64,000 nucleotides of DNA from Balanoglossus misakiensis (GCA_040954595.2 CM082594.2:5193319-5257318); one strand, 5' to 3'. Shown: positions 17,120-50,903, counted from the stretch's first letter. Translations and numbers: made by a program. The notes: generated from the letters alone by a model not told the origin.

Positions 17120-20100
17120 TTATGAAGTAGAGTCTGTTTCGATGTTTATAAGTTTTGTCATGACATCAGAGAGGTCAAAGGGCAATGGATAAGTTTCATC
17201 TGCATCTGTCCAATACGGCCGATAGTCCGGTGTGTGCTCTGGTGGTATTTGGAAGAGGTCACGATCTGAGAATCTGTGAAAGAGAGAGAGAGTTGAAACG
17301 TTTACACCTTTCTTTCTGCAAATTACATTTTTTGTACCAATGTGTACAACATAGTGTACCAGTATACTTTTCAGACACAATCTGATTAAATGATTGTCGG
17401 ACGTAACTCAAACCATTGGGCAATGTTCATTTGGCTGTGGTTCTTATCTACTGCTGTAAGAAATTGTATGTTCCAAGCACAGTCTATACCCAGCATGTTT
17501 GTGTTGGTAAATTGCAATGGGCAGTCTACTGTAATAGTCCAATGTGTGTGTGAGGTGTCAGTATCCAGGCGCTGTATTGTATGCACATGAATAAATGCCC
17601 TGGCATTTAATTTAACCCTTTCATCCCCAATACCTGTCGAGTGGACCGACTTTACCCATGGAAATGACCAGGGTGCGGACCAAACTATTCGGGTGAAAGG
17701 GTTAAAAAGTCTTGAGCAATTTCTTGAGGAAGGACACTTACCTATTCATCCAGTGATTGCGTGATGATTGCCTCGTCGTGATCGCCAACAGCAGTGTTTG
17801 TGCCAGCGATTTATTCTTCTCTTCAACTGCGACATCTATGGCTAATTTTGTCTGAAAGTAGACAGTGCAATATTTCACTTCAGTGTTCCTCTCAGTTAGA
17901 CTCAGCCCGAGAAGACGCAGATTTTTGCAAAAATGCTTACATAAATGCGTTGCTCCCCTTTAAGAAATCATGTTTAACATTAGAATCAATATTAGAAAAA
18001 AACACTATGCAAGGTGCCTAAAAAACAACAAATACCAATTACAAGTTTACTTCCATCAACTAACTCACCATCACTTCCATCTGATGCCAGTGGTTTTCCA
18101 GCTCCTGCATGGGATCGATCCAGTACTCGCGTTCCTTGGCATGCTGAGCTCCTTGCATCCAAAATTGTCGCAGCCACTCAAATTCCACCTGAAAATACAC
18201 GCGAGTACTCTAATCAACCCTGATGAAACCCCAAGAATATAATTACATATACATGTGCTACAATTTCTTTACATCCTGTCTCGGTACTGAGTGATAGGAT
18301 TGTACACATCATTTTAAACATTGCTGCATTCCATGGGCTACTTTATGCTACAAGTTTCAAATATCAGCAGAGCAGAGCAGAGTCGAACATGATGCACGAT
18401 CCAGGCAGAAAAACACTGTCAATATAAATAGCAACAAAACAACAATAACCCATGAATCTGTGACTACCTCAAAATCTCACCTCATTGTGGACTTCTTCTG
18501 TAAATCTGATTGTTTCACATTCAATCGATTGCAGAGACACACGTCCGTTGCTGTCTTCATTGCGGTTTTCCAACGCTTTATGACATCTGTGTTGTATGTC
18601 CGACAGCATGTCACACTGGTGGACACAGAAGATAGAAAACAAGTCAATGTAAATAATAAACTATTACTACACTTTAAGATTTCTGTCTACGTGCTTGTTG
18701 TCAAAATGAGTCGAAACTACAACAACTCTGGCATACAAGATTGGTATTGGGTGTTGCTGCTGTTTTACAATTCTAAAAGTCACTGGCCAATAACTGGCCA
18801 AATTTGCAAGTGGTTAATCATATCATACTGTTAGTCAGTTGTGAGTGTAAAGGCTAAGTCCGCACACTATGGTGTTAGTTAGGACAAAACATGACATACA
18901 GAGTATTTGAAGGTGCATATTCACTCTTCAAACTTTGAAGTCACAATTCTATGTGATTCTGTGCCCAACCTGTGGTAATAATTTGTACATGTAACCGTGA
19001 CAACATCATCTGACTTGGACGACATTGTCATTACCGGTAATTCACTAATCCCCATATTTTGCCTGGTAATATAACATACCTTTGTCATCCTGTACGTAGC
19101 ACTATACCTTGGTGCAGACCCGGCAATGACGCAGTGCTGATGCGTGTCGTTCATGGTGTCCAACATGTAGTAACATTCTCCATCGCTAAGTGGCGTGGCG
19201 ACAGCTGTAATATCCGTGTTCCACGCAACTTTCAGACCAATCTTCCATTCTTCATCTTCCTCTGATTCAGAATCTGTGAATATTATGAATATAAATGCAA
19301 AAACAATTGCCATATCATAAAACAGATACTGAGATTACGGTATATAAAAGATACAATGCTACATGTCAGGACTGTTCTCCATTGTATTCTAAGCAGTGTG
19401 CCCTCTAACAAACATAAACAAAAGCTTTGAGCCACTTTGATGATTTCTAGTCAGCCCTATACCTTTACATGTATCATGTATAATTTTCTCAAGTCACCAG
19501 TGGGTTTGTTGAGTCAGTGGTATATCATAGGGGCTTAGAGGGCACACTGATTCTGAGTGAGACTTCTGCCTTGACAAAGACAGTAGCATATAGCATTTTT
19601 GATCAACAGACAAGAACATTGTGTGTTTTGACATCTGTTCAGTGTTTGATAAAATGCCATACAGCAACTCCTAAGTAAGTTACCATTGCTGCTTGTCAGA
19701 TGAGGAGACTGATGGACTGTTAAGAATTAGTTCGAATGCGAAGAAGTAATTCTCAGTGTATACTTACTCCGACAGGTATGGTTGTAGACGGCCACAGTGG
19801 AACCCTGCACTAAACCCTCGTCGCTATGCCAACTGACAGCCAATCTGCCCATGCCAAAGTACGGCTCTGGTTTCAAGTGCACGCGACGTGGATCCATGTA
19901 ATTCAGAAGGGTCAGGTTGAAACTGCTGTTCCGTTCAATCACATCGCCGGCGTCGCTTTTCCCACTGGAGTGTTCCAGAGGATCCGGTATGTCCACATTT
20001 TCTGTTTCGGTTACATCTTCAGTCTCTCGTTTTGAACCCACACTTGATTTGGCACTCTTCTCATCATGCTCCCTCAGTTTCTGCACCACCAGATGTTTGC

Positions 20101-21278
20101 TGCGCTCGCAGAAATAACTGTTCAACTCTTTGAAGACACCGCACGCCTTTTCGATGTCGTTACCCGGCCGCCTCCCCGCGAAGGACCACGGCAACGTAAA
20201 CAGTCGCAAATTGAGATACTTGTACGTCAGACCAGGCTCACCAATCAGAGTCCTCGATACTTGAGTCAGAATGGTTTTGTTGTAGATTTTGACTCTGTCT
20301 TGATAGAAGTAACCATGGTTACACAGTGTTTCAAAGGCCCATTGAATTCTCTTGTGAAAGTCAGACGGTATGTTTTCTTTGGGCTGCACCACGAAATTGG
20401 AATAGCTCTCTTTTACCTGCAAGGAATGAATAAGTGTAATTACAACAAATGCTCAGTATTAGATTTGCAGCAATTTACAATTCAAGAATCATTAAAATGA
20501 GCTATACGCTGTTCACTCTGACATAGGAATTTAATCCTAAAATTTGTCAGTAAGTTTGCCAATGTGTGTGATATAAAATCATGCTCTGGGCATTTCTTTT
20601 TTCATAATACAAGTACATGTTATCTGAATTCTGACACAACATTGGATAAATATGTGGCAGCCTGAAAGTCAGTTCACTACTACATGAAAGAATCTGATGA
20701 AACTTACCACTCGTTCATACTCTTTGCAGGATGGTGTAAGGAACTCACAGTGGTTTTGTAAATTCTGAATTAAGGTCTTCTTCTGTCAGGAGAAATAAAA
20801 GGGTGGGATTAAAACAGAAGCGGTTCAGAAAACTATAGCATAGGCAGGAATTAATTTGTCATGTTTATAAGATCCCAGTGTGTCATCCAGAATATTGGGG
20901 GGGGGGGGGGGGACATAATACACTGTAATAATACACTGACCCCCCCCCCCCCCGAAAAATTACTAGTGCCCCCCACCACTACCTACCTCAACATGACTTA
21001 ATCTTAGATGCGATCGCGGAAACTAAATACTTACAATCATGTACTAGCTGTGGGTGTGTACGTGTACGTCGGTCCTACGTTACAACGTACACACTGTGTA
21101 GTGTGTACATGTACTTGACTGTTAGCTGTTGATGACAGACTTTCCGCGATCGCGATCGAGGGAAAGAAGTGGCCCTCAGTTCACGATAGAAAATCATTTC
21201 TCTTACCTTTGCTCTCTTCCTCCTCTTTTCCTCGATTTCGTCCGAAGTTTCAGTTGTCTCTACCCCGCGTTTTAACAT
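17120..21278 (-). CDS. FTO: Alpha-ketoglutarate-dependent dioxygenase FTO (m6A/m6Am RNA demethylase), ~502 aa
   Basis: Eight GT-AG exons join into a 1509-nt ORF: 21278-21207, 20782-20708, 20416-19768, 19273-19080, 18615-18481, 18188-18069, 17851-17742, 17273-17120. FTO-specific motifs: VSRTLIGEPGLTYKYLNLRLF, TLLNYMDP, LKPEPYFGMG, VSWHSDE, THQHCVIAG...PRYSATYR, EEVHNEVEFEWLRQFWMQG, RPYW...PLPFDL. Confidence 0.96.
17616..17701. mobile_element. piggyBac-derived MITE (~85 bp, TTAA TSD); family members at 46953-47037, ~36843-36930 and ~9740-9823
   Basis: TTAA-CCCTTTCA...TGAAAGGG-TTAA, with a shared internal GGACCAAAC-like core among copies. Confidence 0.75.
19394..19549. mobile_element. hAT-type MITE in an FTO intron; a second copy, inverted, at 53345-53504 in a UBXN6 intron
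   Basis: TIR CAGTGTGCCCTCTAA...TTAGAGGGCACACTG with 8-bp TSD ATTCTAAG/ATTCTGAG. The internal sequence is shared with the 53345 copy. Confidence 0.8.
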
Positions 21279-21988
21279 TTTCTTGAGCTGTCATCACGAA
21301 CGAGCAATCATTTCAGGAAGTAAACAAACACATGACCTATGACCCTTTAGGGTCAAGCAAAGTTGTGAATGCTGAACAGTCACAGTCGTTTGTGTTTACA
21401 TCAATCCCTTGGTACAAATATTTTTTTTATAATGTTAACACATTTTACAATATTAAATATTAAATAAAAAGCGTACGTAATCTATAAACTGTATGTACCC
21501 GTTCCCAGGTATGGAGCGCCCTCAAACAAACAACCTTCGACCTTTGACCTCATGTTTGCGACGGAACAGCCATGTGTGCAGCCCAAACAAAAATTACCTC
21601 TAACTACCACCGCAACGAACACCCGTGGTTGTCCAAACCCCAGACCTACAAGGAGGAGCCCGAATCCACATGGAAACTACGGTAATAACATTATATTTTG
21701 CATGTGTTTCATTCGCTTCGGCATCGCTTTTAAGTTGGTCGCCATGTTGGAAAATGTGGTGCATCCTGGGATGGATGCGGGTCAAGATGTGAAACAGAAT
21801 CTGCTGGCTGAATTGGTTTCTAAGCAAATTCTCATGTTGGCACGAGCTTATTCAGTGTCTATAAAATAATTTATCTGTCAATTTTCCAGAGTTCAGTGAT
21901 GGGGTCGTCCAACTCATGCCAAGGTACATCCAGCAGTAGCCTCCGGATCACATGATCTTAGATCTGGAACCTTGTCACTAGGAGAGAT

Positions 21989-24370: not shown

Positions 24371-27300
24371 ATTTTTGACAAAAATCATGGATTATAGCTC
24401 ATGAAAATCATCCAAAAATGACAATTTTTCGACTTTGCGAAATATCAAAATGTCTTCATTTTTTTGAAAAAACCATGGGTTATAGCTCATGAAAATCATC
24501 CAAAAATGACAATTTTTCGACTTTGCAAAATATCAAAATTTCTTCATTTTTTTGAAAAAACCATGGGTTATAGCTCATGAAAATAAACCAAAAATGACAA
24601 TTTTTCGACTTTGAGAAATATCAAAATTTCTTCATTTTTTTGAAAAAACCATGGGTTATAGCTCATGAAAATCATCCAAAAATGACAATTTTTCGACTTT
24701 GCGAAATATCAAATTTTCTTCATTTTTTTGAAAAAACCATGGGTTATAGCTCATGAAAATCATCCAAAAATGACAATTTTTCGACTTTGCGAAATATCAA
24801 AATTTCTTCATATTTTTGAAAAAACCATGGGTTATAGCTCATGAAAATCATCCAAAAATGACAATTTTTCGACTTTGCGAAATATCAAAATTTCTTCATT
24901 TTTTTGAAAAAACCATGGGTTATAGCTCATGAAAATCATCCAAAAATGACAATTTTTCGACTTTGCGAAATATCAAAATTTCTTCATTTTTTTTAAAAAA
25001 CCATGGGTTATAGCTCATGAAAATCATCCAAAAATGACAATTTTTCGACTTTGCGAAATATCAAAATTTCTTCATTTTTTTGAAAAAACCATGGGTTATA
25101 GCTCATGAAAATCATCCAAAAATGACAATTTTTCGACTTTGCGAAATATCAAAATTTCTTCATTTTTTTGAAAAAACCATGGGTTATAGCTCATGAAAAT
25201 CATCCAAAAATGACAATTTTACGACTTTGCGAAATATCAAAATTTCTCCATTTTTTTGAAAAAACCATGGGTTATAGCTCATGAAAATCATCCAAAAATG
25301 ACAATTTTTCGACTTTGCGAAATATCAAAATTTCTTCATTTTTTTGAAAAAACCATGGGTTATAGCTCATGAAAATCATCCAAAAATGACAATTTTTCGA
25401 CTTTGCGAAATATCAAAATTTCTTCATATTTTTGAAAAAACCATGGGTTATAGCTCATGAAAATCATCCAAAAATGACAATTTTTCGACTTTGCGAAATA
25501 TCAAAATTTCTTCATTTTTTTGAAAAAACCATGGGTTATAGCTAATGAAAATCATCCAAAAATGACAATTTTTCGACTTTGCGAAATATCAAAATTTCTT
25601 CATTTTTTTGAAAAAACCATGGGTTATAGCTCATGAAAATCATCCAAAAATGACAATTTTTCGACTTTGCGAAATATCAAAATTTCTTCATTTTTTTGAA
25701 AAAACCATGGGTTATAGCTCATGAAAATCATCCAAAAATGACAATTTTTCGACTTTGCGAAATATCAAAATTTCTTCATTTTTTTAAAAAACCATGGGTT
25801 ATAGCTCATGAAAATCATCCAAAAATGACAATTTTTCGACTTTGCGAAATATCAAAATTTCTTCATTTTTTTTAAAAAACCATGGGTTATAGCTCATGAA
25901 AATCATCCAAAAATGACAATTTTTCGACTTTGCGAAATATCAAAATTTCTTCATTTTTTTAAAAAAACCATGGGTTATAGCTCATGAAAATCATCCAAAA
26001 ATGACAATTTTTCGACTTTGCGAAATATCAAAATTTCTTCATTTTTTTTAAAAAACCATGGGTTATAGCTCATGAAAATCATCCAAAAATGACAATTTTT
26101 CGACTTTGCGAAATATCAAAATTTCTTCATTTTTTTAAAAAAACCATGGGTTATAGCTCATGAAAATCATCCAAAAATGACAATTTTTCGACTTTGCGAA
26201 ATATCAAAATTTCTTCATTTTTTAAAAAAAACCATGGGTTATAGCTCATGAAAATCATCCAAAAATGACAATTTTTCGACTTTGCGAAATATCAAAATTT
26301 CTTCATTTTTTTGAAAAAAACCATGGGTTATAGCTCATGAAAATAATCCAAAAATGACAATTTTTCGACTTTGCGAAATATCAAAATTTCTTCATTTTTT
26401 TGAAAAAACCATGGGTTATAGCTCATGAAAATCATCCAAAAATGACAATTTTTCGACTTTGCGAAATATCAAAATTTCTTCATTTTTTTGAAAAAACCAT
26501 GGGTTATAGCTCATGAAAATCATCCAAAAATGACAATTTTTCGACTTTGCGAAATATCAAAATTTCTTCATTTTTTTGAAAAAACCATGGGTTATAGCTC
26601 ATGAAAATCAACCAAAAATGACAATTTTTCGACTTTGAGAAATATCAAAATTTCTTCATTTTTTTGAAAAAACCATGGGTTATAGCTCATGAAAATCATC
26701 CAAAAATGACAATTTTTCGACTTTGCGAAATATCAAAATTTCTTCATTTTTTTGAAAAAACCATGGGTTATAGCTCATGAAAATCATCCAAAAATGACAA
26801 TTTTTCGACTTTGCGAAATATCAAAATTTCTTCATATTTTTGAAAAAACCATGGGTTATAGCTCATGAAAATCATCCAAAAATGACAATTTTTCGACTTT
26901 GCGAAATATCAAAATTTCTTCATTTTTTTGAAAAAACCATGGGTTATAGCTCATGAAAATCATCCAAAAATGACAATTTTTCGACTTTGCGAAATATCAA
27001 AATTTCTTCATTTTTTTGAAAAAACCATGGGTTATAGCTCATGAAAATCATCCAAAAATGACAATTTTTCGACTTTGCGAAATATCAAAATTTCTTCATT
27101 TTTTTGAAAAAACCATGGGTTATAGCTCATGAAAATCATCCAAAAATGACAATTTTTCGACTTTGCGAAATATCAAAATTTCTTCATTTTTTTGAAAAAA
27201 ACCATGGGTTATAGCTCATGAAAATCATCCAAAAATGACAATTTTTCGACTTTGCGAAACATCAAAATTTCTTCATTTTTTTGAAAAAACCATGGGTTAT

Positions 27301-30300
27301 AGCTCATGAAAATCATCCAAAAATGACAATTTTTCGACTTTGCGAAATATCAAAATTTCTTCATTTTTTTTAAAAAACCATGGGTTATAGCTCATGAAAA
27401 TCATCCAAAAATGACAATTTTTCGACTTTGCGAAATATCAAAATTTCTTCATTTTTTTGAAAAAAACCATGGGTTATAGCTCATGAAAATCATCCAAAAA
27501 TGACAATTTTTCGACTTTGCGAAATATCAAAATTTCTTCATTTTTTTGAAAAAAACCATGGGTTATAGCTCATGAAAATCATCCAAAAATGACAATTTTT
27601 CGACTTTGCGAAATATCAAAATTTCTTCATTTTTTTGAAAAAAACCATGGGTTATAGCTCATGAAAATCATCCAAAAATGACAATTTTTCGACTTTGCGA
27701 AATATCAAAATTTCTTCATTTTTTTGAAAAAACCATGGGTTATAGCTCATGAAAATCATCCAAAAATGACAATTTTTCGACTTTGCGAAATATCAAAATT
27801 TCTTCATTTTTTTGAAAAAACCATGGGTCATAGCTCATGAAAATCATCCAAAAATGACAATTTTTCGACTTTGCAAAATATCAAAATTTCTTCATTTTTT
27901 TGAAAAAACCATGGGTCATAGCTCATGAAAATCAACCAAAAATGACAATTTTTCGACTTTGAGAAATATCAAAATTTCTTCATTTTTTTGAAAAAACCAT
28001 GGGTTATAGCTCATGAAAATCATCCAAAAATGACATTTTTTCGACTTTGCGAAATATCAAATTTTCTTCATTTTTTTGAAAAAACCATGGGTTATAGCTC
28101 ATGAAATTCATCCAAAAATGACAATTTTTCGACTTTGCGAAATATCAAAATTTCTTCATATTTTTGAAAAAACCATGGGTTATAGCTCATGAAAATCATC
28201 CAAAAATGACAATTTTTCGACTTTGCGAAATATCAAAATTTCTTCATTTTTTTGAAAAAACCATGGGTTATAGCTCATGAAAATCATCCAAAAATGACAA
28301 TTTTTCGACTTTGCGAAATATCAAAATTTCTTCATTTTTTTGAAAAAACCATGGGTTATAGCTCATGAAAATCATCCAAAAATGACAATTTTTCGACTTT
28401 GCGAAATATCAAAATTTCTTCATTTTTTTGAAAAAACCATGGGTTATAGCTCATGAAAATCATCCAAAAATGGCAATTTTTCGACTTTGCGAAATATCAA
28501 AATTTCTTCATTTTTTTGAAAAAACCATGGGTTATAGCTCATGAAAATCATCCAAAAATGACAATTTTTCGACTTTGCGAAATATCAAAATTTCTTCATT
28601 TTTTTGAAAAAACCATGGGTTATAGCTCATGAAAATCATCCAAAAATGACAATTTTTCGACTTTGCGAAATATCAAAATTTCTTCATTTTTTTGAAAAAA
28701 CCATGGGTTATAGCTCATGAAAATCATCCAAAAATGACAATTTTTCGACTTTGAGAAATATCAAAATTTCTTCATTTTTTTGAAAAAACCATGGGTTATA
28801 GCTCATGAAAATCAACCAAAAATGACAATTTTTCGACTTTGAGAAATATCAAAATTTCTTCATTTTTTTGAAAAAACCATGGGTTATAGCTCATGAAAAT
28901 CATCCAAAAATGACAATTTTTCGACTTTGCGAAATATCAAAATTTCTTCATTTTTTTGAAAAAACCATGGGTTATAGCTCATGAAAATCATCCAAAAATG
29001 ACAATTTTTCGACTTTGCGAAATATCAAAATTTCTTCATATTTTTGAAAAAACCATGGGTTATAGCTCATGAAAATCATCCAAAAATGACAATTTTTCGA
29101 CTTTGCGAAATATCAAAATTTCTTCATTTTTTTGAAAAAACCATGGGTTATAGCTCATGAAAATCATCCAAAAATGACAATTTTTCGACTTTGCGAAATA
29201 TCAAAATTTCTTCATTTTTTTTAAAAAACCATGGGTTATAGCTCATGAAAATCATCCAAAAATGACAATTTTTCGACTTTGCGAAATATCAAAATTTCTT
29301 CATTTTTTTGAAAAAAACCATGGGTTATAGCTCATGAAAATCATCCAAAAATGACAATTTTTCGACTTTGCGAAACATCAAAATTTCTTCATTTTTTTGA
29401 AAAAACCATGGGTTATAGCTCATAAAAATCATCCAAAAATGACAATTTTTCGACTTTGCGAAATATCAAAATTTCTTCATTTTTTTGAAAAAACCATGGG
29501 TTATAGCTCATGAAAATCATCCAAAAATGACAATTTTTCGACTTTGCGAAATATCAAAATTTCTTCATTTTTTTGAAAAAACCATGGGTTATAGCTCATG
29601 AAAATCATCCAAAAATGACAATTTTTCGACTTTGCGAAATATCAAAATTTCTTCATTTTTTTGAAAAAACCATGGGTTATAGCTCATGAAAATCATCCAA
29701 AAATGACAATTTTTCGACTTTGCGAAATATCAAAATTTCTTCATTTTTTTGAAAAAACCATGGGTTATAGCTCATGAAAATCATCCAAAAATGACAATTT
29801 TTCGACTTTGCGAAATATCAAAATTTCTTCATTTTTTTGAAAAAACCATGGGTTATAGCTCATGAAAATCATCCAAAAATGACAATTTTTCGACTTTGCG
29901 AAATATCAAAATTTCTTCATTTTTTTGAAAAAACCATGGGTTATAGCTCATGAAAATCATCCAAAAATGACAATTTTTCGACTTTGCGAAATATCAAAAT
30001 TTCTTCATTTTTTTGAAAAAACCATGGGTTATAGCTCATGAAAATCAACCAAAAATGACAATTTTTCGACTTTGAGAAATATCAAAATTTCTTCATTTTT
30101 TTGAAAAAACCATGGGTTATAGCTCATGAAAATCATCCAAAAATGACAATTTTTCGACTTTGCGAAATATCAAAATTTCTTCATATTTTTGAAAAAACCA
30201 TGGGTTATAGCTCATGAAAATCATCCAAAAATGACAATTTTTCGACTTTGCGAAATATCAAAATTTCTTCATTTTTTTGAAAAAACCATGGGTTATAGCT

Positions 30301-33300
30301 CATGAAAATCATCCAAAAATGACAATTTTTCGACTTTGCGAAATATCAAAATTTCTTCATTTTTTTGAAAAAACCATGGGTTATAGCTCATGAAAATCAT
30401 CCAAAAATGACAATTTTTCGACTTTGCGAAATATCAAAATTTCTTCATTTTTTTGAAAAAAACCATGGGTTATAGCTCATGAAAATCATCCAAAAATGAC
30501 AATTTTTCGACTTTGCGAAACATCAAAATTTCTTCATTTTTTTGAAAAAACCATGGGTTATAGCTCATAAAAATCATCCAAAAATGACAATTTTTCGACT
30601 TTGCGAAATATCAAAATTTCTTCATTTTTTTTAAAAAACCATGGGTTATAGCTCATGAAAATCATCCAAAAATGACAATTTTTCGACTTTGCGAAATATC
30701 AAAATTTCTTCATTTTTTTTAAAAAACCATGGGTTATAGCTCATGAAAATCATCCAAAAATGACAATTTTTCGACTTTGCGAAATATCAAAATTTCTTCA
30801 TTTTTTTGAAAAAAACCATGGGTTATAGCTCATGAAAATCATCCAAAAATGACAATTTTTCGACTTTGCGAAATATCAAAATTTCTTCATTTTTTTGAAA
30901 AAACCATGGGTTATAGCTCATGAAAATCATCAAAAAATGACAATTTTTCGACTTTGCGAAATATCAAAATTTCTTCATTTTTTTGAAAAAACCATGGGTT
31001 ATAGCTCATGAAAATCATCCAAAAATGGCAATTTTTCGACTTTGCGAAATATCAAAATTTCTTCATTTTTTTGAAAAAACCATGGGTTATAGCTCATGAA
31101 AATCATCCAAAAATGACATTTTTTCGACTTTGCGAAATATCAAATTTTCTTCATTTTTTTGAAAAAACCATGGGTTATAGCTCATGAAATTCATCCAAAA
31201 ATGACAATTTTTCGACTTTGCGAAATATCAAAATTTCTTCATATTTTTGAAAAAACCATGGGTTATAGCTCATGAAAATCATCCAAAAATGACAATTTTT
31301 CGACTTTGCGAAATATCAAAATTTCTTCATTTTTTTGAAAAAACCATGGGTTATAGCTCATGAAAATCATCCAAAAATGACAATTTTTCGACTTTGCGAA
31401 ATATCAAAATTTCTTCATTTTTTTGAAAAAACCATGGGTTATAGCTCATGAAAATCATCCAAAAATGACAATTTTTCGACTTTGCGAAATATCAAAATTT
31501 CTTCATTTTTTTGAAAAAACCATGGGTTATAGCTCATGAAAATCATCCAAAAATGACAATTTTTCGACTTTGCGAAATATCAAAATTTCTTCATTTTTTT
31601 GAAAAAACCATGGGTTATAGCTCATGAAAATCATCCAAAAATGGCAATTTTTCGACTTTGCGAAATATCAAAATTTCTTCATTTTTTTGAAAAAACCATG
31701 GGTTATAGCTCATGAAAATCATCCAAAAATGACAATTTTTCGACTTTGCGAAATATCAAAATTTCTTCATTTTTTTGAAAAAACCATGGGTTATAGCTCA
31801 TGAAAATCATCCAAAAATGACAATTTTTCGACTTTGCGAAATATCAAAATTTCTTCATTTTTTTGAAAAAACCATGGGTTATAGCTCATGAAAATCATCC
31901 AAAAATGACAATTTTTCGACTTTGCGAAATATTAAAATTTCTTCATTTTTTTGAAAAAACCATGGGTTATAGCTCATGAAAATCATCCAAAAATGACAAT
32001 TTTACGACTTTGCGAAATATCAAAATTTCTCCATTTTTTTGAAAAAACCATGGGATATAGCTCATGAAAATCATCCAAAAATGACAATTTTTCGACTTTG
32101 CGAAATATCAAAATTTCTTCATTTTTTTGAAAAAACCATGGGTTATAGCTCATGAAAATCATCCAAAAATGACAATTTTTCGACTTTGCGAAATATCAAA
32201 ATTTCTTCATTTTTTTGAAAAAACCATGGGTTATAGCTCATGAAAATCATCCAAAAATGACAATTTTTCGACTTTGCGAAATATCAAAATTTCTTCATTT
32301 TTTTGAAAAAACCATGGGTTATAGCTCATGAAAATCATCCAAAAATGACAATTTTTCGACTTTGCGAAATATCAAAATTTCTTCATTTTTTTGAAAAAAA
32401 CATGGGTTATAGCTCATGAAAATCATCCAAAAATGGCAATTTTTCGACTTTGCGAAATATCAAAATTTCTTCATTTTTTTGAAAAAACCATGGGTTATAG
32501 CTCATGAAAATCATCCAAAAATGACAATTTTTCGACTTTGCGAAATATCAAAATTTCTTCATTTTTTTGAAAAAACCATGGGTTATAGCTCATGAAAATC
32601 ATCCAAAAATGGCAATTTTTCGACTTTGCGAAATATCAAAATTTCTTCATTTTTTTGAAAAAACCATGGGTTATAGCTCATGAAAACCATCCAAAAATGG
32701 CAATTTTTCGACTTTGCGAAATATCAAAATTTCTTCATTTTTTTGAAAAAACCATGGGTTATAGCTCATGAAAATCATCCAAAAATGACAATTTTTCGAC
32801 TTTGCGAAATATCAAAATTTCTTCATTTTTTTGAAAAAACCATGGGTTATAGCTCATGAAAATCATCCAAAAATGACAATTTTTCGACTTTGCGAAATAT
32901 CAAAATTTCTTCATTTTTTTGAAAAAACCATGGGTTATAGCTCATGAAAATCATCCAAAAATGACAATTTTTCGACTTTGCGAAATATCAAAATTTCTTC
33001 ATTTTTTTGAAAAAACCATGGGTTATAGCTCATGAAAATCATCCAAAAATGACAATTTTTCGACTTTGCGAAATATCAAAATTTCTTCATTTTTTTGAAA
33101 AAACCATGGGTTATAGCTCATGAAAATCATCCAAAAATGACAATTTTTCGACTTTGCGAAATATCAAAATTTCTTCATTTTTTTGAAAAAACCATGGGTT
33201 ATAGCTCATGAAAATCATCCAAAAATGACAATTTTTCGACTTCGCGAAATATCAAAATTTCTTCATTTTTTTGAAAAAACCATGGGTTATAGCTCATGAA

Positions 33301-35108
33301 AATCATCCAAAAATGACAATTTTTCGACTTCGCGAAATATCAAAATTTCTTCATTTTTTTGAAAAAACCATGGGTTATAGCTCATGAAAATCATCCAAAA
33401 ATGACAATTTTTCGACTTTGCGAAATATCAAAATTTCTTCATTTTTTTGAAAAAACCATGGGTTATAGCTCATGAAAATCATCCAAAAATGACAATTTTT
33501 CGACTTTGCGAAATATCAAAATTTCTTCATTTTTTTGAAAAAAACATGGGTTATAGCTCATGAAAATCATCCAAAAATGACAATTTTTCGACTTTGCGAA
33601 ATATCAAAATTTCTTCATTTTTTTGAAAAAACCATGGGTTATAGCTCATGAAAACCATCCAAAAATGGCAATTTTTCGACTTTGCGAAATATCAAAATTT
33701 CTTCATTTTTTTGAAAAAACCATGGGTTATAGCTCATGAAAACCATCCAAAAATGACAATTTTTCGACTTTGCGAAATATCAAAATTTCTTCATTTTTTT
33801 GAAAAAACCATGGGTTATAGCTCATGAAAATCATCCAAAAATGACAATTTTTCGACTTTGCGAAATATCAAAATTTCTTCATTTTTTTGAAAAAACCATG
33901 GGTTATAGCTCATGAAAATCATCCAAAAATGACAATTTTTCGACTTTGCGAAATATCAAAATTTCTTCATTTTTTTGAAAAAACCATGGGTTATAGCTCA
34001 TGAAAATCATCCAAAAATGACAATTTTTCGACTTTGCGAAATATCAAAATTTCTTCATTTTTTTGAAAAAACCATGGGTTATAGCTCATGAAAATCATCC
34101 AAAAATGACAATTTTTCGACTTTGCGAAATATCAAAATTTCTTCATTTTTTTGAAAAAACCATGGGTTATAGCTCATGAAAATCATCCAAAAATGACAAT
34201 TTTTCGACTTTGCGAAATATCAAAATTTCTTCATTTTTTTGAAAAAACCATGGGTTATAGCTCATGAAAATCATCCAAAAATGACAATTTTTCGACTTTG
34301 CGAAATATCAAAATTTCTTCATTTTTTTGAAAAAACCATGGGTTATAGCTCATGAAAATCATCCAAAAATGACAATTTTTCGACTTTGCGAAATATCAAA
34401 ATTTCTTCATTTTTTTGAAAAAACCATGGGTTATAGCTCATGAAAATCATCCAAAAATGACAATTTTTCGACTTTGCGAAATATCAAAATTTCTTCATTT
34501 TTTTGAAAAAAACATGGGTTATAGCTCATGAAAATCATCCAAAAATGACAATTTTTCGACTTTGCGAAATATCAAAATTTCTTCATTTTTTTGAAAAAAC
34601 CATGGGTTATAGCTCATGAAAATCATCCAAAAATGACAATTTTTCGACTTTGCGAAATATCAAAATTTCTTCATTTTTTTGAAAAAACCATGGGTTATAG
34701 CTCATGAAAATCATCCAAAAATGACAATTTTTCGACTTTGCGAAATATCAAAATTTCTTCATTTTTTTGAAAAAACCATGGGTTATAGCTCATGAAAATC
34801 ATCCAAAAATGACAATTTTTCGACTTTGCGAAATATCAAAATTTCTTCATTTTTTTGAAAAAACCATGGGTTATAGCTCATGAAAATCATCCAAAAATGA
34901 CAATTTTTCGACTTTGCGAAATATCAAAATTTCTTCATTTTTTTGAAAAAACCAAGGGTTATAGCTCATGAAAATCATCCAAAAATGACAATTTTTCGAC
35001 TTGGCAAAATATCAAAATTTCTTCATTTTTTTGAAAAAACCATGGGTTATAGCTCATGAAAATCGTCAAAAATCGACAATTTTTCGACTTTGGGAAATTT
35101 CAAAATTT
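24371..35108. repeat. Satellite array, 88-bp unit, ~120 highly homogeneous copies
   Basis: Unit CCATGGGTTATAGCTCATGAAAATCATCCAAAAATGACAATTTTTCGACTTTGCGAAATATCAAAATTTCTTCATTTTTTTGAAAAAA, with starts at e.g. 24561 and 24649. Units at both ends are degenerate. Confidence 0.98.
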
Positions 35109-36970: not shown

Positions 36971-39900
36971 TCATTCGATCGTGTCGCCTGGATTGGGAAG
37001 TTCTTTCTCGACCGCTTTCAAGGCTGCTAGGCACTCCACTGTCACGTTCAACACGGCTATCACTGTCTCCGAATCATCAGCGTCGTACACTGCAAGAAAA
37101 CAGGACGATATCTTTTACAATCCTTCAAGAGAATACTGAGGAACAGTTTAAATCACGCAGGTTATTTACACTGCGAGAAAACATGACAATATCTTTTACA
37201 ATCCTTCAAGAGACCACTGAGGAAAATTTTAAATCCCGCAGATTATTTTTGCAATCTCCGCGACAGACTGTTGGGGTTGGCCTAAAACTGTACCTCACAA
37301 ACAGACAACAATAACGGTTCACTTGATTCAAGACGACAAGAGTAATTCTGTTCATTTCTCAACAACATGTCACCAGCAACTGGCTAGAAATAAACGTGCA
37401 CACGGAAGACCATATTTGCAGAAATATTAAATTTGTTTTCAATATCACATCTCTTACCGTCGATCTCCTGTTCAATGATGTCTCTTTCTTCACTCAATAT
37501 TTGTCTGACATCGATATACGCATGTCCTATGTCTTCACAATCCAGACTCTGATGGTCTTCTGGGGGTTCACTGACAACAGTGAATCTGATCCTGTGAATT
37601 ATCAGAACACCAATAGTTGGAGTTGGCAAATTTGCAAGCATTGTTACACATGTAATATTGTTCATTTGAGTACATGTATGTGCAATGCAAAGCAAATGGG
37701 TGCATGGTTTGGCTTGATTCTAATTTTTGGTTCCAAAATGAAAGTTAATTTTTTCCCAAATGATGACAATCTATCTGCATATACTCACTTTCCTTCTGAT
37801 GGGTCTTCTGGTAACAGCATACTGGCCAAGTAGTCTCGCCGTAACTTGTTGTTTTCTGCATCGACGTGAAAAGCTGAAACGCAAAACACAGACAGAGTCA
37901 CATGAGTCTACGGTGAATTCGTTGGAAGTTGGTCAATCTTGTCACCATACACTGGTGACGTGGTGTTGTATACCTGATGATTATTCCAGGTTGGCAAGCC
38001 AAATAATTTCACAATACATCAATAATGTATACAGTTATGTTTGTCTTCAGAAAATGAAGGCACAGCAGATTATGTTACTAAACCTGCAAGTCTAACACTT
38101 GATATGAAACTACCGGTAGAATTTTGTTTTATTTCAACCCGCTGGTTAAGTTCTGCAAACCTGCACACACTGTAGAACACACGTACAGGTATATTTTGTG
38201 AACATCTTTTATTTTGGTTCCGACAAACAAAGCACATAATTCCTGATAAAACTTGACAACACAAGATTTTAGACCTACCCTTTTTGAAGTTGAAGTACAC
38301 CGGCTGGTTTTGCTTGGGCTTGGGAAGAGAGAAGGGAGTTTCCAACTCGGACGCGTCCACTCCCAGGAACCGATACTCCACGTACAGTCGCTGGACGTTG
38401 TCATCCTCCATCACGGGGCTGTCTTCGTCCATGGTCAGGGAGAATATTGTCACCGTGACAACGTTCTCGTTCTGAAAAACACAAAGTATGTATACTAGAG
38501 CTTTCCGCAGACAATGACATTTCACACTTCTCTGATAATTTGCTTTTCATTCTTCAATACTGTCTGAGACACGATTTGGCTATTGTTCTCGTCTAACTGT
38601 TACACATGGCCGCACACATGGTCTATATTTCTGCCCAAGGTAGTAGGAGGGAATGCTTAACTATACAGAGCCTGGCTTGGTGAAGATGATTCAAGTAACT
38701 GTTTCAATGAGAAACACTGTAATGCACTTACATCAACGGCAGACGGCGCTCTCTTGAACGATGGGGTCATGACGATGTTATCACTTTCACTGTCTACAGA
38801 CAGTTCATCAGCTTCGTCGTCTGTACCTTTGTCTTCGGGCATAGGAATGCTCACTTCTTCCTGAATACTTGTGTCCGTTTCTGCAAAAAAAACCCCAAGA
38901 AATATCATCAACGTTAATTCTTGAACTCACAACCATGATTTCTGCCAGTGATTTTCGAGGAGTTACCACTTGGTTTTTAGTGTCCAGCCACTGTCATCTT
39001 TAAACATTATAATGTCCTTCAACAATTCCTCTCATAAGATCATCAAAACCAGTATTACAATTAACATACCTGCATTCGATTCCTCATCATAAGCCTCACC
39101 ATCATATTCATGTGATTCTTCTTCAAACATGGTGTCTTCAATAGGCTGTTGTTTGTTCATTCAGACAAGAAAACAAAAATCGTTTACAGTTCTCATCTCC
39201 ACCTCAAGTGTGCATCTCATGAAAATACACTTCTTTTCATAGTGTTCCAGTGTTGACGAGTTTTAACTTAATTCATTGTAATAACTGATGCCATACTTCC
39301 CCAGCAGTACACATTTACCAAAGGACTACTAGCATCACAGAACTCATACGGGACTGACTTACCTGCTGTTTGTTGTCTTCAGTAATCGTTTCATCATCAC
39401 TGTCTGATTTCCTCTCGTCCGCAGCCGTCGATGTGTCTGACATCTCTTCTATGGTTGGCCTGGCAACATGCATTGTGCTTTCACTGATGGTTGATGGCTA
39501 CATCAGCACGAATAAAAAAGTACCAGGTTACAAATGTAGAAATATAAACAAGAAACGCAAAACAGAGTGTGAGTACCGTAATCACTCTATCAGTTCAACC
39601 GCTCCATTAATTCAACCACCCACTATTCTTTGGAAAATTAATTATTTTTTAACCTTCAATTGTTTGACCACTGATTAAAATGCATGCGTTGATATGTGTA
39701 TTTTTCATGAAGATATCTGCAACTTAGACCTTCCAAGGTATTCAGAACTCACTGATTTTATTGTGTGTGACCTCAAACAGTTCAATTCTATCATAAATAT
39801 CACCTAAACTACATGCTGATAGTGCATACAATTCATGCCATGCAAACATGCCCCCTGAAAAATTATTGAAGAACTTTGAGTGACCAATTTTGTGTTATGT

Positions 39901-41173
39901 TATTTTTATTCTATTAGTTTGTCTTTTCACAAATCATATTTATTTTTTTCTGGTCGAACTGATGGAGTGATTACGGTATTTTAAAATCCATTTCTATCTA
40001 AGCTGACAGAGTGAAGTGTTTCAGGAATGCTTCAATCAGCGAAGCTGATTTTTCTTGTGAATTATGGACATTTCAGTGCTACATGCAGTAGCCAACTTCA
40101 CACAGACGGATAATTATGCTGATTTTTGTATGTGTATACACAGGCAATGCCTTACCTGTATTATTGGTTCAACTTCAACCACCTCTTCTTTTTTCTTCGG
40201 TTCCACCTGCCAAAATCATTATAACATTTTTTTACAGAAATCTAAATCATACATTTATACAAGTGTCCAAATACCATGTGACACAGTGAAATACAATTCA
40301 ATGCTGCAGTACAATGCAATACAAAACATGACACAACACAAATCAAATCACAGCACCACACTATACCATACCACACCACACCACAGCACTACATGACAAC
40401 ATAGTACAACACAACACAACACAACACAATACAACACAACACAACACAACACAACACAATTCTGCATTGGTGAATACTGCAACTGTCAAAATCACACCAG
40501 GAAGGAAAAATTACCTGAAGTGAGACTCGCTTGGCTGCAGTCCTAGGCGTGGGTTTGGGTTCAGCATCTGACGGCTTTTCCGCCGGCATGGGTGTGGACG
40601 TTGCAATGGGTGGATGTCTGGGCCCTTTCACTGGTGTCTGTGTTAAGGACTGTTCAACCGCCTTTGTTGATGCTCTTGGGGAGCCACCCTAAATCAAACA
40701 ATGCAAATTGTAATTAACGAGGAAAAAGTCTCAAAATGTCAATATTATTACAGATGTATAGATGTGCTGCCCTAACTCTGCTTCTTCGCACAACTTGAAA
40801 ATGAGAATCAGATATCCTTCATTTTTTGACATACAAGTAGGGTTGAAGGTGTATACAGCAGCAAAATATGGTACTTTTTCTCCTTGTAAAAGTACTAGAC
40901 TGACTACTACACAAACACAATTTGGTCCAACCCTATTGTCAATAGTGAACTAGAAAAAGGGTAATTTAGAAAATAAGGATTTTTTAAAACTTTGAAGACA
41001 TGATGCGTACCTTGACTTGTTTTGCAGAAGGTGAAATGGTCTTGGGTGGAAAGTAACTGTACTGCCACTTTAACTGCATATCCATTGTGCCGTTACCTTT
41101 ACCAGAGGACTGTGAAGGAATAGAGGATAAAACTGAGTGATCATATAATGTCTTTGATTATAATCAAATGGAT

Positions 41174-41228
<55 letters not shown>

Positions 41229-44200
41229 AGAACAAAATTACTGAAAATAAAAACTGACAAAAATTTGACTAAGCAGCTGCAGTATCTAAGATTACCACCT
41301 ACCGTTTTAAGTTCAAATGTGCCTTTGATAGCTTTGTCGTGCGCCAGACTTATCAACGGAACTTTGGCAACACCAAGATACGCCACCTCCTCTGGATCAG
41401 TATCATCAAACACATACACTGAAAGCATCTGTAATGAGAATGTGAAGTCAATAGTCATTACATGTTGTATATGAATTATATATTCTAAATAATGATACAA
41501 CACACTTGTATGATGAGTAGTGTCTATTTCTCAATACTCATGTCAGTCAGTACCCACTGACTTTTTCTGGATGTATTTGCGAACCACTTGGCTTAGCAAT
41601 CACTCCACCAACATAATTACTCTAAGAGTCTCACCTCTGTTTTGAGATAGGTGTCCAAGTCCTCGTTGACTGGCACAGGGTACATCTTGCTGTCGTTGAA
41701 CTCTGGGTTGTTGCTGTTTGGTATGATCACCGAGTCGTGGTCTTCAAAATCAAAGAATCTGTACACGCAGTAGGGACTTGGTTGAACTCCTGTGAGGAGA
41801 TATACATTGTACATAATTCAGATCATGAATTACATACAATTAAATGTCATGTAGACTAACAGTATGTCCCAATCACAGTCAGCTGACGTGCAGAGATTGA
41901 CCTTATTGAGTAACCTTACCATCTCTCCTGGCCTTTATGTTTGACACTCTGATGACCTTGACGATCAGCTCATTCAGCGATTTATCCCTCGTTTCTGATT
42001 GGGCGGCTGTCTCTAACGCCTTAATGGCTTCTTTTGTTGCTTTGGTATTCGCTGTCATGTAACCCAGTGCCTTAGTTCTCTCCTGTCGGGGAAAAGAGAA
42101 ATGTCCTCAATTTCATTTTCAGTCCATGGAGGTCGTTGTACCATTTCAAGTTGTGGCAGTCCAGTGGTTGCACAAAAATATACAATGTACCAAAACATCA
42201 CTGATTTGTACTGTGAGTACTCTGTTTATTTCAGCTGCAAACCTGATACACACTGATACTAGAGAGTCACAAATAGTGTTTCTTGTAAAAAAACTGAGAT
42301 ATTTCTTACCCTGAACAGCCTCAGTGCTTGGTCCATGGGCACACGTAGTCTAACCCAGTATGCTACTTCACCATAATTTGTACCAACGCGCCCACCAGAT
42401 ACACCTGCAGTGTCAGAAAATATAATACGGCAACATTTATTGGGTGTCACACAGCGAATATAATGTGGGCCATCCCAAGCAGAAAGTGTCTTGGAGCGCG
42501 ATACTTATGACCATAAGACCCCTTTCTGCTTAGGATGGCCTATGTAACAAAGCTGAATTTATTTCTTACAGACCTCTGTTGTTCAGAGACAACCGACCCA
42601 CCTGTAAGCTGTGCAGTACTGTGCAATCTTCCGTGAGGCTTCTCCAGGAGATCCCGGAATCTCAGCTGGCAAGCAGCCACCGTTTTGTACTCCGTGCCCA
42701 GGGCTTGGTGCACCTCCAGCGTAGTGGACTCCTTCATCAGGTGGTGGAGGAAGAAATCGTCCACGGTCACCACGTACTGAGAGGTGAAATCAAATCCTGG
42801 CCTGCAGAAAAAAATTTTCATTGAAATATATTTAGATACGTCAGTTGGTTTGAAAATTTGAATTGTGGGTGGGTGTTGTCCCATCTGGTTCCCATGGTAA
42901 CTATGTGGCTGGTGTTATATACATATTGGCAAACAATGCATCATAACTTTTTACAACGTTGCCAAGTTACTTGGATGTAACCATTCTCCGTACAGAGATT
43001 GTAGCTACCCTAGCCACACCCCTAGCTAGATTAGAATTATCCTCGCGCTACAATCTCTGTACGGAGAATGGGGTATAACATGTATTGGTGGGCAGGGTCA
43101 CCCTGAACAGTAGGAACAATGTCACAAACCTTTGACAAATACTGACTTTAAATTCAACTTACCGGTCTCCCTTCAGGACTGGTGTTGATTGAACTTCAAA
43201 TTCAAAGAATTCATAAGTGACGAAAGTTGAAGGTTCCTCATCGCCCATCTCTCGAAGAGCGTCTCTGCTGTACGTGATCTGATACAGAAAGTTGGAAGTG
43301 ACATCAGTGTTCAAGTGAATGTCAGAGAATGATGATGATGTTGTTATCGATAATCTGATCCAGTGAAATTACGCATTCAAAACGTTGATGTCTTCATTTG
43401 TTAGAAATGCTATGACTTGGTCATACTTGAACATTCACTTTACACCACTCTGCATCCAAATTCTGAAAGTTCAGTTTTCTGTCTGAATTGATTTCGCTAT
43501 GACATTGAGAATAACTCACCTGTTGGACGTGGATTTCAAACACATTTTGGCCTCTCTCTAGTTTGACCGTTTCATCAATCTCTTCAAACTGATCATCGTG
43601 CTAATCAAGGAGAGAGCACAAAAAATGATGATGTTAGTGGTATGACTATACTGCTGTGGATAATTATTTCCAAAATGCAATTAATGCCTCATGTAAGATA
43701 TTTTATCAGCTCACTGCATATGGCTACACTTTCTGACACAGATCATTTGAACTTTGACCCCTCACAGAAATAATACATGCCCTTTAACCTCATTCCTAGT
43801 AGCCTTAAAACAACTTGCTCAGTGACGTACCTCAAATACATCTTTGAGTTTGATCTGTTTGGTTCCATATGCAATGTCTTTAAGTTGATGTTCAAGTTTC
43901 TATAATAAAAAGAAAAGAAAAAACACAATCAGTTATCTATTGTTGATTTTTTGAATTATATATGTCTTTGAACAAGCAATAGTCCAATGACTTCAGTAGA
44001 AGAATATGCATTAAATTATCATGAATACAAAAAATATGACATCATTTTTTTTAGATGACACTCACTCTAATCCTTGTAGCTCTGATGTCCAACATCTGCG
44101 CATATTCTCCCAGTTTGGTGTCGTATTCTCTCTTGTAATCGTCTAATCTCTGGGTGGCGTTTTCGACTTCCTGTTGGTAGTCGGAGTTGATCTTATGCTG

Positions 44201-47200
44201 AAGAATCAACATATTTCTAGTCTTCTCCAGTTCCTCCGCCGTCTCTGCATGCTCAGCTTGTAGTGCAACTATCTGGTGTTTCAAATCTGTCAAAGAAAGA
44301 GGAGTGTTTCAAAGTGCTGTTACAAGAGGAGGTCGTTTACAGTTGAACAATTTTTAAGTACGTTTCAAGAAGTCAAACAGTATAGACAGCTTTTTTGTAT
44401 CAAACACAATCGACACACACACAAAAATTCAAAAGATATCCCTTTAATAAATCTACTGTATTCAGATTTACTGAGTATTGTAATTTTTCAGTTCATAGTA
44501 AATTCCACCAAATGGAGAACTGTTACTTCTCATTTCATAATGCACATAACAAATAGTCTTGCAATTATAGTACATGTATACCTTTATTCAGTTCTTCATC
44601 CACCTTTTCTAAGAATTCAAGCTCTTGGCTGCCAGCCTCTTTGCGTTTCTATAAGGAGAGAGAGAAAAAGATGACAATGCAGAGTATAATCTACATAGGG
44701 AATGGGTTGACAAAAATCATCAAAAGGAGGTCTACAATGCATATGAATTTCAAAAGGATCTGTATTGAAGCAGGTATGAAAAAATAGCGTCAAGGACACT
44801 GTGGTCCCATTTGAGGACATAGCACATAGCAACATAGCAATGGATGGCAAGATATGGAAAAGTAGGTCAAAGGTCACCTGAGGTCATGCAAAATTTGGGC
44901 AAGAAATTTTGACCCTATACTGGTCCAAGTTGAACAAAAACCAAACCTATAGCCCTATTGGTTAGCCTGTAATTAGGTATGCACATAATTAATGAGATAT
45001 GCAGGTGTCACAGGTGACCCATATTTTGGCTTTTAAATTTTAGTCCCAACCCTCCAAACGCGAAGTCTGTATCTGCTCTGGATGCCAAGATATGATAAAG
45101 TAGGTCAAAGGTCACCTGAGGTCATGCAAAATTTGGGCAAGAAATTTTGACCTTATACTGGTCCATGTTCAATAAAAACCAAACCTATAGCCTTATTGGT
45201 TAGCCTAGGATTAGGTATGCACATAATTAATGAGATATGCAGGTGTCACAGGTGACCCCCAATTTTGGCTTTTCAATTTTAGTGCCAACCCTCCAAACGC
45301 CAACTCTGTACCTGCTCTAGATGCCAAGATATGGTAAAGTAGGTCAAAGGTCACCTAAGGTCATGCAAAATTTGGGCAAGAAATTTTGACCCTATACTGG
45401 TCCATGTTCAACAAAAACCAAACCTATAGCCTTATTGGTTAGCCTGGAATTAGGTATGCACATAATTAATGAGATATGCAGGTGTCACAGGTGACCCCCA
45501 ATTTTGGCTTCTCAATTTTAGTGCTAATCCTCCAAACGCCAAGTCTGTACCTGCTCTGGATGCCAAGATATGGAAAAGTAGGTCAAAGGTCACCTGAGGT
45601 CATGCAAAATTTGGGCAAGAAATTTTGACCCTATACTGGTCCATGTTCAACAAAAACCAAACCTATAGCCCTATTGGTTAGCCTGGAATTAGGTATGCAC
45701 ATAATTAATGAGATATGCAGGTGTCACAGGTGACCCATATTTTGGCTTTTCAATTTTAGTCCCAACCCTCCAAACGCCAAGTCTGTACCTGCTCTGGATG
45801 CCCAGATATAGGAAAGTAGGTCAAAGGTCACCTGAGGTCACCCAAAATTTGGGCAAGAAATTTTGACCCTATACTGGTCCATGTCCCACAAGAACGAAAC
45901 CTCTAGCCCTATTAATTAGCCCGGAATTAGGTATGCACATAATTAATGTGTTAAGCAGGTGTTACAGGTGAGCCCAAAAATTTGCCTTTTATTTTGGCCC
46001 CATTGTGCTCACTGGCCAATAGACAGTCACTGTACAGGACTATTGCACAGACCAGAATTCCACAATAAGACGTGGACATAGCTTAACCATAGAGGTATAA
46101 GTAAAGGTATAAATTTAATAAAAAGACTAAAAAATTCATAAAAAATAAAACATCCATGATATCAACTTAACACTTACAGGTCGGTGTGAGGTTGACATAA
46201 GGTACATACATATCAATTTTCAAAGCAATCTGACCAGTAATTGTTGACTTACAGAGTTTTGATCAATTTCACATTTTACAAGCTAATTTGCATATTTTTG
46301 GGCCTGGCAACTTCGTTTGGACAAACTCCCATCTACAGCCCAGCCTGCACCTACACACCAAATATTGAGGTGATACGCGCAGCGGTTTTCAAGTTTTTGA
46401 TGTGGACGGACATACAGACATACATCCATACATCCATACATCCATACATCCATACATCCATACATCCATCCATCCATACATACATACAGACGCAACCCAT
46501 CCCATAAGGTCCCATGGTATATAGGCCTATACCAATGGGACCTAAAAACAGTTAGTCCACTTTCATGACCACTGAGTGACCCTACATCCTGGCATTTTGT
46601 AGGTATAGAACAAACCAATAGGGCAGACCCAATTGCTAATATAACTATATGGATTGCACATACATCGTACAAATAAATTAGCAATAAAGTCACACTGACT
46701 GAATTCAAGCTCACCTTGACAAGGATCAGTGCCTCTTCCAGCTCCTGGAAATCGACGGCGCTTTCTTTTGTGAAGAATTTCATCTTTTCTTGCAGCTCGT
46801 CAAGCTGTTGTTTTGTGGAGTAATATCGGATTTGGGCCTCTCTGTGTTCTTGTTCTAACTTTTCTCTGGTCTCTGCAGGAGTGGAAGCATTAAAAGTATT
46901 TTAAATATCCAATTTATTGTGAAAAAAATTCCTGGTTTTGGATGCAGGTTAACCCTTTCACCCCCAGTTCTCTCTCGAGAGATCAAACTCTACCATGTGC
47001 AACAATGGATTTGGACCAAACCATGGTGGTGAAAGGGTTAAGGATGTAAAAGCCTTGGGGACAGATTTTCAGAATAGTGACAATCCTCCAATCTTTTAAA
47101 TTCGTTGCTAACATTAAAGCGTGTGAGGAGTTTTCTTGGTATCAACACTGTCTACTGTCTCACAGAAAACGGGTTTGGATGAACAAATTCAAAAACAACA

Positions 47201-50200: not shown

Positions 50201-50903
50201 ACTATACTGAATTCGGGATAAAATGTGACAAACTGCAATACACTGCTTACTTTACAAGAATAGGTTTATAAATTTGTTCCTGAATTTACCATGTTACAGT
50301 AGTTGTAAATATTAATTGACTTGGTGGTAATATACATAGGCAAAAACAACAAATCACACAGCAAGATGTCTGGAAACTAAATTTATTACGCCACCAATGA
50401 AACTGACAGGTGCTCATAAGAGAGCTACTCAGTATTACCTCTTGATTTTGTCCTCTTGTTTTCTTCCATGTTTCTTCAACACAATATTGTCTTCATACAA
50501 CCTGAGGTATTTATCCTCCAATTCATCTCGACTCCACTTGGCAATGGCTCTCCTCTGCTGGCCTTGTTTGTGTTCAGCATCGACTGAAAGAGACATAAAC
50601 GTACATCACGTAAGCGAGAGAAACACTGTGAAATTAAACAATGATTATAATAACTCCAGTTGTAACAATATACTGGCTATCTTTAGCAGAAGAATATACT
50701 GTTACATGTTACATGTTACATGTTACATGTTACAGAAAGTCAAAAGTTATGACATTGTAAATGTTGGATAAAAAGGAAAGAAACATACTTCCATCTTCTT
50801 CCAGGTTGACGTAACCACCGGCTCCATATTTACCAGGGTTATCTCTCACAGGTTCATCATATGCAGTTTCGTCTGCTACCGGTGCGTATGGTGGACCAGG
50901 CAT
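36971..50903 (-). CDS. RPGRIP1L: Protein fantom / RPGRIP1-like ciliary transition-zone protein (coiled coils plus three C2 domains), roughly 33 coding exons
   Basis: ATG at 50903 ([21 protein letters not shown]). Exons encode [16 protein letters not shown]...[120 protein letters not shown] and SEPPE...DCEDIG. The last exon is 37089-36971. A non-coding first exon has its donor at ~51532. Confidence 0.95.
40300..40460. repeat. (ACAAC/ACACC)n pentanucleotide microsatellite
   Basis: Directly visible intronic tandem pentamers. Confidence 0.8.
41174..41228. repeat. (ATC)n microsatellite
   Basis: Directly visible, in an RPGRIP1L intron. Confidence 0.9.
42981..43071. mobile_element. Short MITE-like hairpin with 25-bp perfect TIRs
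   Basis: CCATTCTCCGTACAGAGATTGTAGC ... GCTACAATCTCTGTACGGAGAATGG. Confidence 0.65.
44680..46548 (+). mobile_element. Helentron-associated non-autonomous element (HINE-like) carrying 5 copies of a 238-239-bp repeat
   Basis: Subterminal inverted motif GGGAATGGGTTG (~44698) and CAACCCATCCC (~46493). Tandem units at 44861, 45099, 45338, 45577 and 45815. (CATA/CATC)n microsatellite at 46410-46490. 3' hairpin AGGTCCCA...TGGGACCT (46507-46543) followed by an A-tract. The left boundary is approximate. Confidence 0.72.
46953..47037. mobile_element. piggyBac-derived MITE with TTAA TSD
   Basis: TTAA-CCCTTTCACC...GGTGAAAGGG-TTAA. Confidence 0.8.

Follow-up and report, generated by a model that had tools for sequence, protein, structure and literature searches.

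FTO was long viewed as a gene of vertebrates and algae (PMC2241624), a view repeated in PMC10404889. Simakov et al. in 2015 (PMC4729200) assigned FTO, or FATSO, to deuterostomes and marine microbes, and their table gives one copy each for Saccoglossus and Ptychodera and none for amphioxus, Ciona, Strongylocentrotus or any non-deuterostome, the zeros including Amphimedon, Nematostella, Trichoplax and all protostomes. NCBI additionally names FTO-like proteins in Glandiceps, Saccoglossus, Acanthaster, Patiria and Lytechinus; for sea urchins, the Lytechinus proteins (P0281, P0135) stand against the zero listed for Strongylocentrotus in the 2015 table.

Here we describe an FTO gene within a 64-kb stretch of Balanoglossus misakiensis DNA (hereafter the window). 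The initial annotation of this DNA had presented an invertebrate FTO as novel, a claim that does not hold, since both the 2015 report (PMC4729200) and the sea-star, sea-urchin and hemichordate database copies precede it; the gene is a new member of the group reported in 2015, and the headline claim is already published. We nevertheless regard it as highly probable that the window gene is an intact orthologue encoding a predicted nuclear RNA demethylase, which descends from the deuterostome ancestor and, likely, from an animal ancestor older still.

Gene structure and relationship to hemichordate FTOs

The FTO gene occupies the minus strand from 21278 to 17120, spanning 4,159 nt, and is composed of eight exons (Table 1) separated by introns of 217–494 nt, all of which (7/7) have GT-AG boundaries. 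The coding sequence of 1509 nt specifies 502 amino acids followed by a TAA stop codon, and contains no internal stops. The uninterrupted eight-exon, 502-residue reading frame of the initial annotation is therefore borne out, its start and end coordinates being exact, as is its coding span of about 4.2 kb, which results from the short introns. By comparison, the human/vertebrate FTO gene extends over about 418 kb and has nine exons; the vertebrate boundary corresponding to window residue 303/304, which is seen in six isoform pairs, has no intron here.

Table 1. Features of the window, with positions counted from its first nucleotide
Feature	Position	Strand	Observations
FTO exon 1	21207..21278	-	ATG; basic stretch; junction coincides with isoform breaks; no tblastn HSP
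FTO exon 2	20708..20782	-	tblastn E 2.6; 3' junction coincides with Patiria isoform and sponge-like read-through
FTO exon 3	19768..20416	-	Pfam FTO_NTD E 2e-60; PDB FTO E 6e-43; equivalents of R96, Y106, Y108, L109 (nucleobase pocket), N205, H231-x-D233-E234 and, in the FTO-unique loop, K216
FTO exon 4	19080..19273	-	FTO_NTD E 6e-23; equals vertebrate exons 4+5, intron between them absent; equivalents of Y295, H307, R316, S318, R322
FTO exon 5	18481..18615	-	C-terminal helical domain begins; FTO_CTD E 0.017, under cut-off
FTO exon 6	18069..18188	-	FTO_CTD E 4e-13, over cut-off; conserved EFEWLRQFW motif
FTO exon 7	17742..17851	-	no Pfam match alone; tblastn with Glandiceps FTO E 1e-4
FTO exon 8	17120..17273	-	stop codon; FTO_CTD E 5e-4, under cut-off
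Candidate poly(A) signal	17045		ATTAAA, past FTO exon 8
RPGRIP1L (fantom)	36974..50903	-	Pfam C2-C2_1, RPGR1_C; about 30 exon-like HSPs; upstream of FTO
88-bp satellite	24372..35108	.	122 copies, 98% matches, AT-rich
239-bp tandem repeat	44841-45990		4.8 copies; inside RPGRIP1L intron
Possible small gene	21747-22631	+	head-to-head with FTO
ORF in possible small gene	22395-22631	+	GC-rich, last-exon-like
ORF downstream of FTO	16305-16589	-	directly downstream
Purple acid phosphatase (ACP7-like) exons	4613-9181	+	Pfam Pur_ac_phosph_N, Metallophos_C
Weak UBX-domain exon and clathrin adaptor small-chain exon	52967-58772	-	UBX E 0.065; upstream of RPGRIP1L

Both FTO domains that had been claimed for the product are recovered by Pfam, namely the AlkB-like catalytic domain FTO_NTD (PF12933) in exons 3 and 4, and the FTO-specific C-terminal domain FTO_CTD (PF12934) in exon 6, with exons 5 and 8 matching below the cut-off and exon 7 placed by tblastn. 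Each of the 12 PDB sequences matched is an FTO. Support is weakest for exons 1 and 2, although both their junctions still match isoform breaks. The basic stretch of exon 1 is a likely nuclear localisation signal, by analogy with the K/R-rich N-terminus described in PMC2241624. Around the 5' end of the gene (21000–21300) the CpG observed/expected ratio is 1.35, versus 0.67 window-wide, as calculated in small windows. A missed exon was considered and rejected, as tblastn with Glandiceps FTO gives no additional FTO segment in the window; the same query detects no second FTO copy within the 64 kb.

The junctions were compared with 31 same-species isoform pairs of FTO orthologues, which are database models analysed at the protein level. 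For each of the seven, one or more pairs show a breakpoint, the breaks falling at window FTO residues 24/25, 49, 265, 329/330, 375, 415 and 449–452; that after residue 49 is matched mainly by Patiria and one approximate vertebrate pair. Additional isoform breaks occur at 477–479 and at 20 (two pairs each), where window FTO has no junctions. On the basis of these protein-level breakpoints, the exon–intron structure is common to vertebrate FTO at 7/7 junctions.

In a tree of 43 rows, which like the 27-row tree were hand-picked from over 350 proteins, window FTO groups with Glandiceps (97/88), then with the hemichordates (98/94) and then within the deuterostome FTO clade (100/97), and its position within the deuterostome clade is retained in the 27-row tree (93/95). 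Together with an RPGRIP1L neighbour that also groups with hemichordates (100/100) and not with vertebrates, this places the source among the acorn worms and bears out the reading of the gene as a genuine invertebrate FTO orthologue; the deuterostome placement likewise upholds an FTO older than vertebrates. Exon 3 matches Glandiceps best (52%), then Saccoglossus (50%) and Acanthaster (46%). Over the full length, identity is 55% to Glandiceps XP_077993603.1 and 50% to Saccoglossus XP_002738337.2, which have the same two domains and are sister to it in the trees; the source is thus an enteropneust distinct from these two species and weakly closer to Glandiceps (supports 81/79 and 97/88). The window copy differs from both in three substitutions (S319A, H321Y and V323M in human numbering), in a two-residue deletion and in a longer acidic insert within exon 3. 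The substitutions, the deletion and the upstream RPGRIP1L gene do not figure in the initial annotation.

Linkage to RPGRIP1L

Upstream of FTO, and on the same strand, lies the gene encoding RPGRIP1L. A gap of 15.7 kb separates it from the FTO start, 10.7 kb of which is filled by the 88-bp satellite. The identity of RPGRIP1L by tblastn is 76.6% to Glandiceps, 75.9% to Saccoglossus and 59–66% to the named echinoderms. A tandem repeat of 239 bp is present within one of the RPGRIP1L introns. The arrangement is distinct from that of the human and vertebrate locus, where RPGRIP1L is head-to-head with FTO, the human genes being in opposite orientation with starts about 100–200 bp apart (PMC8720706, PMC5441178). 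The vertebrate FTO locus also has IRX genes nearby, whereas no homeodomain motif is present in the 64-kb window.

The FTO and fantom records of Glandiceps, Acanthaster and Patiria lie on contigs of equal size (24,148,329, 2,115,401 and 7,096,946, respectively), such that the two genes apparently share one contig in each species; the Patiria accession numbers are, moreover, close. A further fantom record of Patiria lies on a different contig, the Lytechinus FTO and fantom records come from two species, and the Saccoglossus genes are on different scaffolds (16,622 and 680,549). Since linkage is seen in the window and apparently in Glandiceps, Acanthaster and Patiria, the FTO–RPGRIP1L linkage of vertebrates likely predates vertebrates. 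Our literature search found no paper on RPGRIP1L–FTO linkage in invertebrates. An old linkage that does not involve a head-to-head promoter bears on why both genes stay together.

A possible small gene lies head-to-head with FTO, the candidate start codons of the two being some 470 bp apart; the GC-rich ORF that forms part of it has no Pfam match, and its Atlas matches are under 0.9. On the other side of FTO, the directly downstream ORF resembles what we take to be a SnoaL/DUF4440-type domain, and a Pfam search with it returned no match.

Sponge homologues and the origin of FTO

Searching 50%-cluster representatives with Glandiceps FTO gave 521 matches, the best 150 of which were taken; among 30 proteins looked up, those with a named source come from sea urchins, Corticium, Gefionella, Pellita, Aplanochytrium and Baffinella. 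The sponge protein, Corticium candelabrum XP_062505117.1, is named FTO-like by NCBI, is encoded on an 8.55-Mb contig and has both Pfam domains; two proteins are close relatives (61% and 69%), and Corticium forms a 100/100 clade with P0294 and P0295 in the 43-row tree. These three share with window FTO both domains, the catalytic residues and, apparently, two intron positions. The sponge introns are deduced from breakpoints in proteins rather than from DNA, and both are phase 0: a read-through protein of the sponge clade, P0362, matches its spliced counterpart for 318 residues, corresponding to window residues 50 to 415, and departs from it at 49|50 and 415|416, both of which are junctions of window FTO, while breaks at 415 are likewise present in P0295 and in Corticium isoform X2. 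The intron 3' of exon 6 is thus apparently common to sponge FTO. Corticium FTO differs in having 35% identity to window FTO, a glutamine in place of E234 and apparently one long central exon. When metagenomes were scanned for a sponge-like locus, only two distant loci (34–36%) were recovered.

A deuterostome candidate for horizontal transfer in the sense of Simakov et al. (2015) would have no homologue in non-deuterostome animals, yet Corticium has an FTO-like protein; of the three cases of possible transfer to stem deuterostomes that are figured, the sponge copy would eliminate one. Among the literature results listed, which cover journals other than subscription ones, no paper reports a sponge FTO.

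The tree, the intron positions and the RPGRIP1L linkage indicate descent of window FTO from the deuterostome ancestor, and the comparison with sponges makes an earlier animal ancestor likely. We favour, with some reserve, the presence of FTO in the last common animal ancestor and its vertical inheritance, followed by loss in most non-deuterostomes, amphioxus and tunicates. In addition to the Corticium gene and the breakpoints described above, this history is consistent with the grouping of sponges with deuterostomes in the 43-row tree (81/92), a topology that is not rejected with 27 rows (AU p 0.17), whereas the AU test rejects a grouping of deuterostomes with the green-algal/stramenopile clade (p 0.02, 27 rows). 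FTO copies are also present in a malawimonad and an amoebozoan. On the other hand, the 27-row tree joins the cryptophyte Baffinella (KAJ1495429) and P0147 to deuterostomes (97/95) and leaves sponges outside, the sponge branch is long (1.26), the two introns are seen through proteins and share a common phase, and the sponge-like gene apparently lacks the other internal introns of window FTO. Many losses are also needed, given the zeros for Amphimedon, Nematostella, Trichoplax and protostomes in the 2015 table. A FastTree of 132 rows gives no resolution at the sponge–deuterostome depth.

The main alternative, which Simakov et al. (2015; PMC4729200) give as one of two possibilities, is that FTO was transferred horizontally from a marine microbial eukaryote to the deuterostome stem, in which case the sponge copy would represent a separate transfer. 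The patchy distribution reported there fits such a transfer, as does the sister position of the cryptophyte-containing pair in the 27-row tree, and this pair shares a K-x-A-W-D motif with deuterostomes. Yet the pair has no placement in the 43-row tree, both of its rows are flagged for odd composition, and a sister position of the main algal/stramenopile clade is rejected. The two introns apparently shared with sponges favour a gene that was inherited and repeatedly lost rather than acquired from algae, and we consider horizontal transfer onto the deuterostome stem possible but unlikely. The repeated loss proposed by the initial annotation fits the zeros of amphioxus and Ciona in the 2015 table, and would fit more widely still had the sponge gene been inherited. 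The full scenario, with FTO ancestral in animals, homoscleromorph sponges keeping two introns at the positions found in acorn worms and vertebrates, most other lineages having lost the gene and the RPGRIP1L linkage dating from the deuterostome ancestor, we judge to have an even chance of being correct. On this view, FTO would have originated neither in vertebrates nor by transfer to stem deuterostomes. Its linkage to RPGRIP1L is central to the human obesity locus.

A microbial FTO of 436 amino acids (P0385 cluster) is called as one ORF in metagenome contigs of up to 245 kb; a scan of viral contigs with P0385 gave no match.

Catalytic pocket, substitution cluster and predicted activity

Window FTO resembles human and vertebrate FTO (PDB 3lfm, from which the human numbering is taken by alignment) in its RPGRIP1L neighbour, in the presence of the FTO-unique loop and in the 20 pocket residues listed in PMC6386707, which contact metal, cosubstrate, base or backbone and are all identical (20/20). 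The identical positions include all eight of the Fe ligands H231, D233 and H307 and the 2-oxoglutarate ligands N205, Y295, R316, S318 and R322, the N6-methyladenine pocket residues I85, R96, Y106, Y108, L109, L203, V228, S229, W230 and E234, and the backbone residues K88 and K216; every residue named in the initial annotation is present. By analogy with human FTO, the product would be a nuclear Fe(II)/2-oxoglutarate dioxygenase, directed to the nucleus by its basic N-terminus, in which H246, D248 and H312 would bind iron, and N221, Y300, R321, S323 and R327 would bind 2-oxoglutarate. Likewise, R104, Y114, Y116, L117, V243 and E249 would hold the flipped base and K96 and K231 grip the backbone, with the FTO-unique loop keeping duplexes out, such that the N6-methyl group of adenosine in single-stranded RNA could be oxidised and released. 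We consider the gene a real orthologue that is probably functional.

The last catalytic arginine, R322, is flanked by S319A, H321Y and V323M (exon 4, positions 19100, 19094 and 19088). S319, H321 and V323 are near-invariant but not among the listed catalytic residues, and histidine is present at 321 in 169 of 172 other rows. Across 54 columns whose conservation reaches 85% or more among 165 rows from vertebrates and others, window FTO departs at three, other ambulacrarians at 2–5 and two sponge-clade rows at 7; all three of its departures lie within five residues (post-hoc clustering p ~0.0009). Our literature searches gave no earlier description of this cluster. At the start of exon 5, the two-residue deletion relative to hemichordate and vertebrate orthologues is followed by a Y-to-D change, and a conserved W-D becomes W-N. 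Together these changes could impair folding, and the three substitutions make activity less certain while leaving orthology unaffected. A-to-I editing as a cause of H321Y was discarded by reasoning, as TAC cannot become a His codon.

A weakened or decaying gene, its activity reduced or abolished by the substitutions clustered at the last catalytic strand, would account for S319A, H321Y, V323M, the deletion and the Y-to-D change all falling inside about 13 residues, but we think it improbable. Stops and frameshifts are absent, splice sites are all canonical, the alternating catalytic residues R321, S323, T325 and R327 (window numbering) are intact, Gefionella FTO carries L and Y at two of the cluster sites, and the three departures lie inside the range of other ambulacrarians. 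As the changes fall at every other position, between the R, S, T and R that remain intact, they likely occupy the opposite face of the strand, which would fit a compensated repacking. With ambulacrarian and sponge rows left out of the profile, window FTO scores 477.8 bits, level with Glandiceps (469.5) and Saccoglossus (485.5), which argues that it is not degenerate overall; its terminal branch in the 43-row tree is 0.39 versus 0.32 for Glandiceps.

An active m6A/m6Am eraser, as originally proposed, is what we infer from the residues. The likeliest target would be the cap-adjacent m6Am of snRNAs, which we favour because one preprint (bioRxiv 10.1101/2025.10.22.681652) argues that snRNA m6Am, and not mRNA m6A, is the main FTO substrate even in mammals; the hemichordate substrate is thereby extrapolated from a group where it is itself disputed. 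A compact 4-kb FTO in a manipulable invertebrate embryo would have comparative value as a test of the original substrate, snRNA m6Am versus mRNA m6A. That the enzyme is instead mainly an AlkB-type repair demethylase of 3-meT/3-meU and m1A seems very improbable, for although FTO also acts on 3mT and m1A (PMC6386707), R96 and E234, which select for N6-methyladenine (PMC6386707), are kept here. Hemichordate and vertebrate FTOs retain E234, which is absent from sea-star, Lytechinus and sponge rows (P0003 G, P0287 S, P0281 G, P0282 Q), a variation that provides a natural test of substrate choice.
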